A DNA stretch of 64,000 bases from a virus: the IMG/VR virus record IMGVR_UViG_3300047557_001530, positions 1-64,000 of that record; one strand, 5' to 3'. This document shows, piece by piece, positions 1-30,091 of this stretch. Made by a program: the position numbers and the translations under genes. Each line of letters opens with the position of its first letter. The stretch's first letter is position 1. Below the pieces are notes generated by a model, which was not told the DNA's origin, did no database searches, and worked only from the letters and a program-made list of their open reading frames with translations.

Positions 1-24
1 ACCTGGGGCACTGTGGGGGCAGAG

Positions 25-65
25 TGGACAGTGCCCCCACCCTGCCCCTATACTGATCAAGTCAA
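25..65 (+). promoter_or_regulatory. Early sigma70-type promoter cassette 1
   Basis: TGGACA (25-30), N18, TATACT (49-54), then GATCAAGTCAACC. The same block recurs before later early genes. Confidence 0.75.
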
Positions 66-79
66 CCAACGACAGAGCC

Positions 80-841
80 ATGCTCACCTTCTCCAAAGGC
101 AACGCCAAGCTGGGCACCCAGACCCTGATCTTCAACCTGCCCGCTGGCAAGACCTGCCCAGGTGCTATGTTCTGCAAGTCGTTTGCTGTTGTTGATGCAA
201 ACGGCAAGCGTAGCATTCAAGACACCGAGCACACCCAATTCCGTTGCTTCGCTGCATCTTCTGAGGTGCAATACGATGGGGCATTCTACAACCGAGCAAA
301 CAACCTGCAAACCGTTGTAGACTACCTGCAGGTGGGTGTTGATCACGCTGCCGACCAGATTAACGTTGCATTGCAACACTTTAAGACTCGCAACACCAAG
401 CTGGTTCGCATCCATGAGTCGGGCGACTTCTTCAGCCTCGCTTATCTTGAAGCATGGGTGAAGGTTGCACAGATGAACCCCAATCTCAAGTTCTATTGCT
501 ATAGCAAATCGCTTCACATCTTCACCGAGTTCGGTGTAGCTAACCTGCCTGCCAATTTCTATCTCACTGCATCCTACGGTGGCAAGTTCGACTACATGAT
601 CGACGAAGGTTTGTTCACTCGCTATAGCAAAGTGGTGATGACCGATGATGATGCAAACCGTCTCGGTCTTGAGGTTGATCACGACGACAGCCACTGTTTC
701 GGTGCTGAACCGTTCGCCCTCCTGGTGCATGGCACCCAGCCCAAGGGCAGCGACTGGGGCAAGGCGATCCGCCAGCGTCGCCAGGCTGGGCAGTTCGGAG
801 GCTACAGCAAGGCGAACGCCAGCCAGGCTGTGCCAGTCTGA
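80..841 (+). CDS. Gp88-like phage protein (radical-SAM-like, Cys motif)
   Basis: GNAKL start, FNLPAGKTCPGAMFC...RCFA Cys triad and RIHESGDF motif typical of the GP88 family. Preceded by a promoter cassette. Confidence 0.7.
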   Translation: MLTFSKGNAKLGTQTLIFNLPAGKTCPGAMFCKSFAVVDANGKRSIQDTEHTQFRCFAASSEVQYDGAFYNRANNLQTVVDYLQVGVDHAADQINVALQHFKTRNTKLVRIHESGDFFSLAYLEAWVKVAQMNPNLKFYCYSKSLHIFTEFGVANLPANFYLTASYGGKFDYMIDEGLFTRYSKVVMTDDDANRLGLEVDHDDSHCFGAEPFALLVHGTQPKGSDWGKAIRQRRQAGQFGGYSKANASQAVPV

Positions 842-25902: not shown

Positions 25903-26109
25903 ATGAACAATTACATTAAAGTTGAAGGTCATGAAAATTTATATCGAGATCCTTCCACTGGTGCCATAGTTAATACAGGTGTTCCAGCCAAGAATACATT
26001 ATCAAAAACTGTTAACACTGTAGTTGATGACATAAATAATTTGAAGAATGAAATTTCTGAAATCAAATCTCTTCTAAAAAATATCGTAGAAAATGGCATT
26101 AAATCGTAG
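25903..26109 (+). CDS. Small structural protein (68 aa)
   Basis: KVEGH.NL.RD..TGAI.N plus a coiled coil; typically follows the VrlC-like gene. Confidence 0.75.
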   Translation: MNNYIKVEGHENLYRDPSTGAIVNTGVPAKNTLSKTVNTVVDDINNLKNEISEIKSLLKNIVENGIKS

Positions 26110-29100
26110 AGAAGTACTAAAAACGAATACGTTTGAAGAGCAAAGGCTTGAGATAAATCGATTAGCTCAAGACGTTTACGATGTCTTTACGGGAGAAGAG
26201 GGTGTAGAAGCTATTCAGATCGATGGTCCTATTATTGATGGGACAGATAAAACAGGAACTCAAGGTCAAGTATTATTATCAACTGGATCTGGTGTTCTAT
26301 GGAAAACATTATCAATCTCTAATGTTCTTTGGGTAACTAAAGATGGTGATGATGACAATGATGGTTTAAGTCAAGAAACAGCAAAGGCATCTATTGGATC
26401 AGCTCTTAGAGCCGCTAATTCTGGATTTCTAGGAAAACTTCAAGACGCATCAAATCAAATTTTAGCTAACAAAAAATTAATCCAACAAGAATCTATTGGC
26501 TGGCTGCTCACAGAATATCTTAAAGAAGGAAATGGAGATAAACAAATTGATGCAGCTAATTTAATAACTGCAAACAAAGATTTTATTGCTAATGAAGCTG
26601 TCGAAAGAATGCTCGGAGAGTATTCTGAATTTACAATTCCTGGAGGAAATCAGCAGTGTGTTAGTGATGTAATCAAAGTATTAGATGCTGTAATTTTTAA
26701 TTTGAGATATGACGGCAATAATAAAGTATATGAAGCAGCAAATGTATATGTAACAAATCCATCTTTATTGGCTGGAGAAAGAGAACAGTCAGTAGCTGTT
26801 TATGAATATGCAAGAGATCTAACAATTTCTGTAATGAGAAATCAACCAATCACTGTGCAAGGGTCTCATGGATATACACAATTTATTGACAACACTATCA
26901 TCGGTGATGCTTCAAATCAACCAGGAATTTATAATTTTTTAACAGATTGTGCCGATATAGCAAGTTCTATTACTTCGCTATATGCAATAATTTTACAAGC
27001 TATTGGAACAGAAGCATCTCCAGGAGATCTTGATGGAATTACAAAAACATATCCAAATAGATTTACATTTCCAAATAGTCCACCAGAATCTGGAAGATAT
27101 AAGGATGCAAGAAATTTAATTTATAGAAACATTGATGAAATTGCTGATAGAGCACTTGCAGAAATTGCAATTCAGTATGACGAATCTACCTGGGGAACTG
27201 ATTGGACTTTCCCGAGTGCTTCTCTTTCTGCAGAAACACAGCGTTATAAAGATGCTTATAGATTAATACAAAATAATAGAGCTTATATTATAGAAGAAGC
27301 ATTTAACTTTTTATTAGTAAATTATCCTTCATTTGTAAATCCTGATAGTGATAAATGCAGAAGAGATCTTGGTTATTTTATTGATGCAGTATCATTAGAT
27401 TTATTCTTGGGAAGCAACAAATATTCAAGAAAATTTGCTTCTTTCTATTATAGTGGTGCTAATGTTCAATATTTGGAAGATGAAGTTACTGAATCTGTAG
27501 CAGCTTTTGAAGCTGCAAAAGATTTAATGATTGACGCAATGAAAAATCTTTTACCATATCAAGATTTGAGCATTACTGTAGATAATGACCCAGATGGAGT
27601 TTGTTTAAACGTAGAGCAATCAATCAATACTTTATTTACTATTATTTCTGATGTGCTATTAAATGGTATAGATGAATTACAAGCATATCCAGAAACACCA
27701 AGCAATTTATTTGTAAACGAATCAAAATGTCGTAGAGATATAGAATATGTTGCCCGTAGCATTGCAGATGATTTATATAACGGAGGCAACATAAACACAA
27801 TTAGAGCAGCAAGAAAATATTTTGATATTGATGGAGAATTTATTTTAATTGATGGTGAAGGTGTTCAATCACTCATAGCTTTCCAAAAAGCTGGTGAAAT
27901 GATTAACAAAGCTTTAACCAACCAGCTTTATGAAAAGAATTTAACTTTACCAGAAGCAGCAGCAGAATATGGTGGAGAAGGTGAAGTTATTCCATATGGG
28001 GTTTCTGGAAATGAAAATACATGTATAGATGTACAAAATACCGTCAATACATTAATTCAAATTTTAACTACAGTTATAGAAGACGAAACTTTAATATCAC
28101 TAACTGGCATAGAAGAGAACGAAGGTATTTGGGCAGAATATGAAAATATTTGCTTGAGAGATATTGGGTATATTATTGATGCTGTCGCATCTGATTTAAA
28201 ACAAGGCGGAAATGTAAACTGTGTAGATGCTGGTAATGCATACTATAAAGGTAATGAACTAGTCTTTATTGATGGAGAAGAAAGACAGTCATTAGCTACT
28301 TTTGAAAAAGCTAAAGAATTGATGATTTTAGCTATGCGTAATTGGAGTCTTAATATAGATGGAGATACATATCGTCCAAAATATACCTTTATAGAACCAT
28401 ACATTGACTCATCGTTAATTATTGATACAGAGTTAAATGAAGAAAATCAATCTGTATTAGTATATCCGCCATGCAGTGATGTAGCTTCCTCAATTGAAAA
28501 CTATTTTAATATTATTGAATATATTATTAAAAATGGAGAAAACTCTGTAGCACAACAACTACCTTCATTTAAGACTACAGTATTTGTTAAGTCAGGGGTT
28601 TATGTAGAGCAAAACCCAATGACATTACCACCAAATACAGGTATTGTTGGCGACAACTTAAGAGAGGTTAGTATTTTGCCAGCTATTCCTACCGTTGATA
28701 TGTTCTATATGAACAATGGTAGTTATATTACTGGGGCTACATTTTCTGGACATTTGGCTCCATCTGCAATTGGATCATTCCCCAAAGTATTAATTGGTAG
28801 CCCAGTAAACTTACCTTCTTGCTCTGGAATATCAAATTCATATACTATTACAGTTCCAGGTACAAATAACCTTGTTCTTGGAATGACTGTTAGTGGAGAT
28901 GGTATTGGTACGGGAGCTGTAATTACTAAAATTAGAGGTTCGCAAGTAACGTTAAGTGTTGCAAATAGAGAATCATTTACAAATAGAACTATTAAATTTG
29001 AAAACTATGTTGGTCTTACTGGAGTTATTACTCGTTCTCCATATATTCAAAACTGCACCAGTTTAACAACTACTGGTGCAGGTCTTCGTGTTGATGGTAA

Positions 29101-30091
29101 TTTAGCTAGTGGAACCGCATCTTTCGTTCTTGACTCATACACTCAATACAATCAAGGTGGTGATGGTATTGTTATCGTAAACCAAGGTTATACTCAGTTG
29201 GTATCTATCTTTGAAATTTGTTGTGATCGTGCTGTTTATTTGTCTGGCGGATCTACTTGTTCGATTACAAACTCAAACACAGACTTTGGTAATTTTGGAT
29301 TGGTAGCTGATGGAACAAGTCCTTTGCAATATAAAGCAAATATTGACTTTAATCAATTAAGAGGCAGTACTTTTAAACTCAAAAATTTAAGAACAGAGCC
29401 TTATGTAGGACAGGTAATTACTTTTGGTAATAATGGGGATCCATACTATTTTATTCAGGAGATAAATATAACTAATAGTGGTTCTGGATATAATCCAAAT
29501 GATCCACCTACTATTGTCATTGATGCACCAACAGGTCCAGATGGTATTACAGCCCAAGCAATAGCTAATATTGAAGACGGCGAAATTACATCAATTACAT
29601 TGATTTCATCTGGTTCTCAGTTTATCACTGCTCCAAATATTCAAATTGTGGGTGGTGATCCTGATACTCCTGCTACAGCAATAGCTAAAATGTATCCTCA
29701 ATATTATAGTATTATTGCTACTACTGATGTTGATGGAGGAAAATCTACCATTACATTGGATGAAACAGTTCCTTTTGATTTGAATGATAATACAGAAGTT
29801 TACTTCTATCAAGTAACTAAGATTATTGCTAACTCACATTGTTTTGAATATGTTGGTGCAGGAACACAAATTAATAAGGCTATCCCAGCCAAAGGTGGTG
29901 TTCCGTCCCAAGCCTGTGAAGTTGTTGAATTGAATGGTGGTAAAGTTGCTTTTACAAGTACAGATCACCTAGGTAATTTTAGAATTGGTACAGGTATTCA
30001 AATTAACCAAAATACTGGTACATTATCTGGCGACTCCTTTGAAAGAAGTCTTTTCGTAACAGTAACCCCATTCATTCTAGCCCTATCCTAA
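26093..30091 (+). CDS. Virion fibre or tailspike-like protein: pectin-lyase-like beta-helix with four inserted phycobiliprotein-beta-like domains
   Basis: N-terminal T4-type attachment motif (TNTFEEQRLEIN), split beta-helix cap (WVTKDGDDDNDG...TVFVKSGVYVE), SPYIQNCTS beta-helix, and four CxxD..Y..DA...DL..GGN repeats. Confidence 0.75.
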   Translation: MALNRREVLKTNTFEEQRLEINRLAQDVYDVFTGEEGVEAIQIDGPIIDGTDKTGTQGQVLLSTGSGVLWKTLSISNVLWVTKDGDDDNDGLSQETAKASIGSALRAANSGFLGKLQDASNQILANKKLIQQESIGWLLTEYLKEGNGDKQIDAANLITANKDFIANEAVERMLGEYSEFTIPGGNQQCVSDVIKVLDAVIFNLRYDGNNKVYEAANVYVTNPSLLAGEREQSVAVYEYARDLTISVMRNQPITVQGSHGYTQFIDNTIIGDASNQPGIYNFLTDCADIASSITSLYAIILQAIGTEASPGDLDGITKTYPNRFTFPNSPPESGRYKDARNLIYRNIDEIADRALAEIAIQYDESTWGTDWTFPSASLSAETQRYKDAYRLIQNNRAYIIEEAFNFLLVNYPSFVNPDSDKCRRDLGYFIDAVSLDLFLGSNKYSRKFASFYYSGANVQYLEDEVTESVAAFEAAKDLMIDAMKNLLPYQDLSITVDNDPDGVCLNVEQSINTLFTIISDVLLNGIDELQAYPETPSNLFVNESKCRRDIEYVARSIADDLYNGGNINTIRAARKYFDIDGEFILIDGEGVQSLIAFQKAGEMINKALTNQLYEKNLTLPEAAAEYGGEGEVIPYGVSGNENTCIDVQNTVNTLIQILTTVIEDETLISLTGIEENEGIWAEYENICLRDIGYIIDAVASDLKQGGNVNCVDAGNAYYKGNELVFIDGEERQSLATFEKAKELMILAMRNWSLNIDGDTYRPKYTFIEPYIDSSLIIDTELNEENQSVLVYPPCSDVASSIENYFNIIEYIIKNGENSVAQQLPSFKTTVFVKSGVYVEQNPMTLPPNTGIVGDNLREVSILPAIPTVDMFYMNNGSYITGATFSGHLAPSAIGSFPKVLIGSPVNLPSCSGISNSYTITVPGTNNLVLGMTVSGDGIGTGAVITKIRGSQVTLSVANRESFTNRTIKFENYVGLTGVITRSPYIQNCTSLTTTGAGLRVDGNLASGTASFVLDSYTQYNQGGDGIVIVNQGYTQLVSIFEICCDRAVYLSGGSTCSITNSNTDFGNFGLVADGTSPLQYKANIDFNQLRGSTFKLKNLRTEPYVGQVITFGNNGDPYYFIQEINITNSGSGYNPNDPPTIVIDAPTGPDGITAQAIANIEDGEITSITLISSGSQFITAPNIQIVGGDPDTPATAIAKMYPQYYSIIATTDVDGGKSTITLDETVPFDLNDNTEVYFYQVTKIIANSHCFEYVGAGTQINKAIPAKGGVPSQACEVVELNGGKVAFTSTDHLGNFRIGTGIQINQNTGTLSGDSFERSLFVTVTPFILALS

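Follow-up and report, generated by a model that had tools for sequence, protein, structure and literature searches.

The first 64 kb (64,000 nucleotides, hereafter the window) of the 171,368-bp IMG/VR virus record IMGVR_UViG_3300047557_001530, a record rated 88% complete, encode a 1332-aa protein with four units that resemble the beta subunits of phycobiliproteins. Each unit has two conserved cysteines (Cys), the first in a CxxD motif at a Cys-84-type site and the second just ahead of the last helix, in what structural models indicate to be the position of the beta-153/155 bilin site. T-type lyases serve Cys-153/155 of phycobiliprotein beta subunits (PMC10452541), and a gene for a lyase of this type, cpeT, is carried at positions 137136-137660 of the same genome.

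Under the reading proposed here, each unit would descend from a beta-type globin domain of a phycobiliprotein that has diverged and become part of a virion fibre protein, having kept the Cys-84-type site (CxRD) along with the second Cys as the counterpart of beta-153/155. The second Cys would be a second covalent bilin-attachment site, loaded inside the infected cell by a T-type lyase, namely phage CpeT where it is present, as in this genome, or otherwise the CpcT or CpeT that the host is assumed to provide. The bilin itself would be supplied by the host, since the phage lacks bilin synthesis genes. Taken as a whole, the proposal that the second Cys is a bilin site loaded by phage CpeT or a host T-type lyase appears plausible, at somewhat less than an even chance; both bilin attachment and the role of CpeT as the enzyme are inferred from the observations below. 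A search of an incomplete literature collection found no publication describing phycobiliprotein-like domains in phage virions.

Four units with two repeat cysteines each

The four units align mutually, and all match one hidden Markov model (HMM) at E-values of 1e-46 to 1e-61. The open reading frame (ORF), its units and the codons of the second Cys are as follows.

26093..30091, + strand, ORF of 1332 aa from the ORF list and translation, in which a beta-helix C-terminal part comes after four phycobiliprotein-like units
26444..27046, + strand, unit 1 (residues 118-318), complete and globin-type with helices X/Y-A-B and E-H, from the model and HMMER alignments
27131..27685, + strand, unit 2 (residues 347-531), complete, from the second AlphaFold (AF2) model
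27692..28108, + strand, unit 3 (residues 534-672), repeat HMM E 5e-51, helices at residues 220-343 of the second model
28112..28558, + strand, unit 4 (residues 674-822), repeat HMM E 1e-54, secondary structure from the second model
28673..30091, + strand, C-terminal beta-rich part (residues about 861-1332), with PHROG tail-fibre and baseplate-wedge matches over residues 971-1331
26948..26950, + strand, second-Cys codon of unit 1 (Cys286), from the translation; model residue 169
27602..27604, + strand, second-Cys codon of unit 2 (Cys504), from the translation; residue 183 of the second model
28022..28024, + strand, second-Cys codon of unit 3 (Cys644), from the translation; HMM column shared with units 1 and 2
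28472..28474, + strand, second-Cys codon of unit 4 (Cys794), from the translation; HMM column shared with units 1 and 2

The first-Cys (CxxD) codons of the four units lie at 26657, 27356, 27728 and 28151. Unit 1 has an Asp-39-like residue (Asp153), its first Cys (Cys189) in the motif QCVSD and its second at Cys286, and unit 2 has the corresponding Asp in YKDAY, with Cys422 in KCRRD and Cys504. Units 3 and 4 comprise helices E-H only; the Cys pair is Cys546 (KCRRD) and Cys644 in unit 3, and Cys687 (ICLRD) and Cys794 (PCSDVASSIENYF) in unit 4. Residues 1-860 hold nine Cys in total, made up of the four first Cys, the four second Cys and Cys710, so that eight of the nine occupy two columns of a four-fold internal repeat. 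The additional Cys710 (codon 28220-28222) belongs to unit 4, where, in the second model, helix G and the last helix are separated by a small beta-strand insertion (window 28380-28500). An earlier reading of this DNA, made from the letters alone and referred to here as the sequence-only reading, had put a second Cys at the start of the last helix of every repeat, at 26948, 27602, 28022 and 28472. All four motifs and their coordinates are exact in the translation, and in both structural models the Cys lies one residue ahead of the last helix.

A set of 121 homologues supplied 528 distinct units, in which conservation was scored. Of the 441 cells covered, 433 (98%) have the second Cys, which on these alignments is far above chance, within a family consensus of [SA]-C-x-[DN]-V-x-x-x-I-[DN]-[TN]-L. 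In the CxRD motif the first Cys is retained in 503 of 507 units (99%), the Arg in 467 (92%) and the Asp in 505 (99.6%). The genome has a single other repeat-bearing gene, a 3445-aa ORF (139700..150037) with three units and both Cys in each.

Several lines of sequence evidence suggest what the protein is. The source virus is a T4-like cyanophage whose capsid protein shares up to 78% identity with the capsid proteins of Synechococcus myoviruses, and ORF 26093..30091 sits within a series of giant structural genes. Its product matches Pfam PF00502 (Phycobilisome) at 38.9 bits (E 1.1e-9), passing the gathering threshold of 22.2, with a best stretch that spans profile positions 27-68 only. It also matches PHROG families of tail fibre, short tail fibre, baseplate wedge and virion structural proteins (E 1e-126 to 1e-49), with a weak Pfam Beta_helix match in the C-terminal part, and is by these matches predicted to be a tail-fibre or baseplate-like virion protein.

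Fold and structural position of the second cysteine

An AF2 model of unit 1 was built on 60 diverse units (predicted local distance difference test score, pLDDT, 89.3), and a second model covers residues 322-845. The globin-like phycobiliprotein fold, and all the structural matches, come from units 1 and 2. When the models were searched with Foldseek and VIA-align, the top matches were all phycobiliprotein beta chains. By VIA-align, unit 1 matched the beta chains of phycocyanin (PC) and phycoerythrin (PE) at Z 16-18, with a root-mean-square deviation (rmsd) of 2.0 Å over 133 residues, and unit 2 did so at Z 17 and 1.8-2.0 Å; for both models against PC and PE beta chains overall, the rmsd was 1.8-2.2 Å over 130-138 residues. 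Residues 29..188 of the unit 1 model and 59..202 of the second model each superpose on PC beta 32..172. The second Cys is 19 residues from the last aligned residue in both models (188-169 and 202-183), which places it at beta-153 of the 172-residue PC beta chain (172-19) and at beta-158 of the 177-residue PE beta chain; PC Cys-153 and PE Cys-158 are both the beta-155 site in consensus numbering. The match to the beta-153/155 site that the sequence-only reading had drawn thus holds by position in two separate models, and the second Cys as positional counterpart of that site is well supported at the level of modelled structure.

Sequence searches align the N-terminal half of the unit with PC and PE chains, matching its helix B (DAxxxIxxNxxxI) and KCxRD to their helix B and Cys-84 site, and the first Cys aligns with KCARD or ACLRD of CpcA and CpeB at the Cys-84 site. 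Units 1 and 2 have a helix-B Asp that aligns with beta Asp-39 and is conserved in at least 90% of full units. Alpha subunits frequently carry Asp-39 as well. In C-phycocyanin, the beta-155 bilin has Asp-39 as its partner and lies 34 Å from the beta-84 bilin (PMC8421246). A disulfide between the first and second Cys of one unit, the outcome that had been named as counting against a bilin site, is rejected on the grounds of the modelled fold and is unlikely because the two Cys hold the sites of these two bilins, which are separated by that distance.

Search for lyase and bilin genes in the genome

No lyase gene is present in the window, as the sequence-only reading had stated, and a search of the whole record, which it had proposed, located cpeT at 137136-137660 (PF06206, 134.7 bits, 174 aa). 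The product matches Nostoc CpcT (PDB 4O4O) over residues 7-172, its full length, at E 4e-24 and is more distant from the compact PhiCpeT of cyanophage P-HM1 (PDB 5HI8; E 1e-6), so by sequence comparison it is of the full-length, CpcT-like, long and host-like type. The bilin-synthesis genes ho1, pcyA and pebS, which the sequence-only reading had also proposed to look for, were not found in this 88%-complete record.

The cpeT gene lies 2 kb upstream of the repeat ORF 139700..150037, with short ORFs filling the gap. In S-CAM4, ACG-2014e/i/j, S-RSM4 and Sf-FR1, too, cpeT precedes a giant "short tail fibre" gene with repeats by 2-5 kb, an adjacency that is given little weight because gene order is generally conserved among T4-like phages. 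In isolate records, transfer RNA genes are annotated beside cpeT. In S-MbCM100 (NC_023584.1, 13426-13854), the cpeT match is interrupted by an in-frame TAA between its halves, and the gene may be split or broken there.

T-type lyases are the only lyases carried by T4-like phages of clusters A and B, and cpeT occurs in more than 60% of T4-like cyanophages (PMC10665884); the role of the phage gene has been stated to be unresolved (PMC3037559).

Co-occurrence of cpeT and the repeat in cyanomyoviruses

A total of 29 isolate genomes and the present genome were searched with PF06206 and the unit profile; isolates were chosen since capsid-based sampling of IMG/VR gave mostly short fragments. The 30 genomes are distributed as follows.

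cpeT present, repeat present: 19 genomes
cpeT present, repeat absent: 0 genomes
cpeT absent, repeat present: 4 genomes (ACG-2014f, S-SKS1, S-BM3 and B23)
cpeT absent, repeat absent: 7 genomes (P-SSM2, P-SSM5, S-SM2, S-SSM7, S-SRM01, S-8S55 and S-CAM9)

A Fisher's test on these 30 genomes (about 1.6e-4, calculated by hand) was rejected as evidence, as one clade supplies nearly all of the cpeT-less genomes. The isolates often have NCEDD or RCKTD as the first-Cys motif, in which the Arg is missing. A split first unit (NCEDD) occurs in many marine isolates, with the second-Cys helix 100-500 residues downstream, which suggests an insertion of other domains into the G-H loop. In ACG-2014f, unit Cys were aligned in separate fragments only.

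One-cysteine and two-cysteine classes in the wider family

A unit-profile search of 1.84 billion representative proteins matched 1615 proteins at E-values up to 1e-3, many with 10-36 units. Classes were counted from the top 140 of these, of which 134 were scored. The second Cys is all-or-none per protein: it is absent from 107 of the 134 and present in at least 75% of the units in 21. Across 1498 units of the one-Cys class, CxRD is kept just as in the two-Cys units (Cys 98%, Arg 95%, Asp 99%). By analogy, the two classes resemble one-bilin and two-bilin phycobiliproteins.

No cpeT was detected in 22 IMG/VR records of the one-Cys class, two of which are rated 100% complete. Among two-Cys-class records, G021, a 71.5-kb record from outside the isolate set with 13 units, of which 11 have the motif, carries cpeT 11 kb from its repeat gene; no cpeT was found in two smaller fragments of this class. 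If the second Cys is served by T-type lyases, a distribution by class such as this would be expected. The two complete one-Cys records are as follows.

L193, 399,796 bp, 100% complete, with a giant one-Cys-class protein and a ferredoxin-dependent bilin reductase (PF05996, E 2e-16)
L212, 252,603 bp, 100% complete, with a giant one-Cys-class protein and a ferredoxin-dependent bilin reductase (PF05996, E 3e-23)

Neither of these two genomes encodes psbA, and a bilin reductase without psbA in both supports a putative use of bilins by the domain family generally. A search of genome contigs with a CpeT alignment gave one match, on a 9.7-kb contig of a metagenome-assembled genome labelled Acidimicrobiaceae (L188, CAYVOK010000067.1). 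The label Nanopelagicaceae is attached to one repeat protein (P0033). In both cases the source is probably a mis-binned phage contig.

Evidence against a bilin site and alternative explanations

Loading of the second Cys by phage CpeT is consistent with every distribution pattern examined, and the exceptions fit host lyases or another CpeT target equally well. A number of observations weigh against the proposed reading, the first group of which concerns the units themselves. The equivalence of the second Cys with beta-153/155 was calculated from the limits of the aligned ranges, counting back along a last helix that is uninterrupted and of high confidence. The likeness to the PC C-terminus on which the sequence-only reading drew stands for unit 4 (PCSDVASSIENYF; CSDVASSIENYF), to which it is peculiar, but not as a family signature, and a profile search with the C-terminal half of the unit recovered no phycobiliprotein, only chance matches to Csn2 (E about 1). 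The unit 1 motif, QCVSD, is without the Arg of CxRD. Units 3 and 4 lack helix B and an Asp-39 equivalent, yet keep both Cys; about two thirds of the units of relatives likewise have no helix-B motif directly upstream, and the second Cys is present in 269 of 277 units without this motif versus 151 of 151 with it. In units without helix B and the Asp-39 equivalent, the canonical beta-155 pocket would be incomplete. A complex prediction for unit 1 and phage CpeT returned "weak support" (median score 0.60; best of three controls 0.00), with runs that agree in at least 56% of contacts, a pLDDT of at least 84 for the partners and no interface given. When the tool was calibrated, 58 of 80 solved complexes reached the mark, as did 2 of 110 mismatches; only 7 of the 80 did so at 0.60 or under, along with both mismatches, and the prediction is not counted as evidence.

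The second group concerns distribution. The co-occurrence check proposed from the sequence alone did show cpeT always accompanied by the repeat (19/19), but on the major capsid protein (MCP) tree all cpeT-less genomes except S-BM3 fall in one well-supported clade, two changes suffice to explain cpeT, and an independent-pairs test has no power; the association at the genome level is largely phylogenetic. Both Cys are kept in cpeT-less phages (5 of 5 units in B23, 1 of 1 in S-BM3 and 1 of 1 in S-SKS1), P-SSM4 has cpeT with detected units that lack both Cys except for one fragment, and the second Cys has been lost from the last unit of many isolates. As cpeT-less phages keep the second Cys, conservation of the site is independent of a phage-encoded lyase, and host T-type lyases could serve it. 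The pattern in the wider family, too, is one of few independent events and is confounded with host type. For the idea that phage CpeT acts on the phage's own virion protein, the position of the Cys, the genomic cpeT, its pairing with the repeat and the one-Cys records without cpeT count in favor, while the phylogenetic clumping, Cys kept without cpeT, P-SSM4 and the lack of ho1, pcyA and pebS do not.

The alternative that survives best, though we regard it as doubtful, is that the second Cys is kept for a reason other than pigment, such as metal binding, packing of the last-helix N-cap, or a disulfide between units or subunits that would form once the particle has been released into oxic seawater, the units being pigment-free structural spacers descended from a beta-type phycobiliprotein. 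Such an origin would accommodate Cys that are equally kept in units without helix B or Asp-39 and in phages without cpeT, the lack of sequence likeness in the C-terminal half, and the majority of wider-family proteins that manage without a second Cys; in addition, the literature search turned up no report of coloured cyanophage particles. It fits less well with the 92-99% conservation of the bilin-contacting CxRD and Asp-39-like residues, with the bilin reductases of non-photosynthetic phages that carry such units, and with an all-or-none second Cys per protein, as would suit a trans-acting factor. Further, if the fold holds, the 34 Å spacing of the bilin sites excludes a Cys pair within one domain.

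A second alternative accepts the second Cys as a bilin site and has it loaded by host T-type lyases or autocatalysis in place of phage CpeT, which would act on host PE or PC or merely hold phycoerythrobilin (PEB), as in the usual view of cpeT as an auxiliary gene. PhiCpeT, in work by Gasper et al. in 2017, reportedly bound PEB tightly without direct transfer to host CpeB. Synechococcus hosts possess T-type lyases of their own, four cpeT-less cyanomyovirus lineages have repeat units (with both Cys together in three), P-SSM4 retains cpeT alongside Cys-poor units, and the cpeT-repeat association is clumped, all of which this explanation absorbs readily. We nevertheless consider it rather unlikely, given that cpeT was never seen without two-Cys-type units in the genomes examined and lies 2-5 kb upstream of the repeat gene in this genome and the other phages named above.

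Least probable is that modelling of a helical repeat produced the beta-153/155 match as an artefact, with the true Cys position elsewhere: the loop ahead of the last helix is of low confidence (pLDDT 64-68 at unit 1 model residues 150-170), helical folds yield high background Z-scores and the equivalence comes from aligned ranges, not coordinates, but two separate models from different alignments give the identical 19-residue offset, Z is 16-18 over the whole domain with beta chains as all top matches, the last helix has a pLDDT of 95-97, and Pfam and PDB sequence searches independently call the N-terminal half phycobiliprotein.

Implications for cyanophage particles

If the second Cys is a CpeT substrate, a widespread "photosynthesis" gene becomes a gene of virion maturation, cyanophage particles would be pigmented, and the unexplained phage cpeT gains a testable target in the phage's own fibre protein. 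Extended to the group, cyanomyovirus particles would bear covalent bilins on fibre or baseplate proteins at two sites per unit, with CpeT loading the second; cpeT would serve virion maturation, bilin reductases in large phages that lack photosystem genes would act for this domain family too, and the virion pigment would perhaps function in light sensing or light use at adsorption. This broader scenario is put forward tentatively, as one that is more likely wrong than right. Light-dependent adsorption is known for some cyanophages and, were the scenario true, would gain a candidate receptor. The all-or-none second Cys, together with bilin reductases in one-Cys phages that lack photosystem genes, makes the idea directly testable on existing isolates.

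Other features of the window

Positions 1-2000 of the window have 58% G+C, versus about 30-38% elsewhere in it, and contain an open-ended ORF (2..841) with a match to Pfam PF17338 (GP88; E 7.6e-42). The contig may begin here with a foreign or chimeric segment.

Comparison with known systems

The nearest relatives by unit are the giant proteins of the one-Cys class (12-30 units, in large uncultured phages), which have the same unit and CxRD and are also virion-type; they differ in that no unit has the second Cys and in the lack of cpeT from the 22 records. The cpeT product of this genome has full-length PF06206 likeness to Nostoc CpcT (PDB 4O4O/4O4S) and, being of the long type (174 aa), differs from the compact PhiCpeT of P-HM1 (PDB 5HI8).

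Phycobiliprotein beta subunits (CpcB, CpeB/MpeB and cryptophyte beta; PF00502) carry bilin, which in the phage units is putative. The two have in common a fold of the globin type (Z 16-18 at an rmsd of about 2 Å), a Cys-84 site with its Arg and Asp, an Asp at beta-39 in the case of units 1 and 2, and a Cys one residue ahead of helix H at the beta-153/155 position. In contrast to beta subunits, helices X-B are missing from units 3 and 4, the phage units have a G-H loop that is 10-35 residues longer and a shorter loop ahead of the first Cys, and the C-terminal half has no detectable sequence similarity. While phycobiliprotein beta chains are free antenna subunits of 170 aa that pair with alpha subunits as heterodimers and build trimers and hexamers, the phage units are covalently joined in one chain, as tandem modules of a predicted 1332-aa virion fibre protein.

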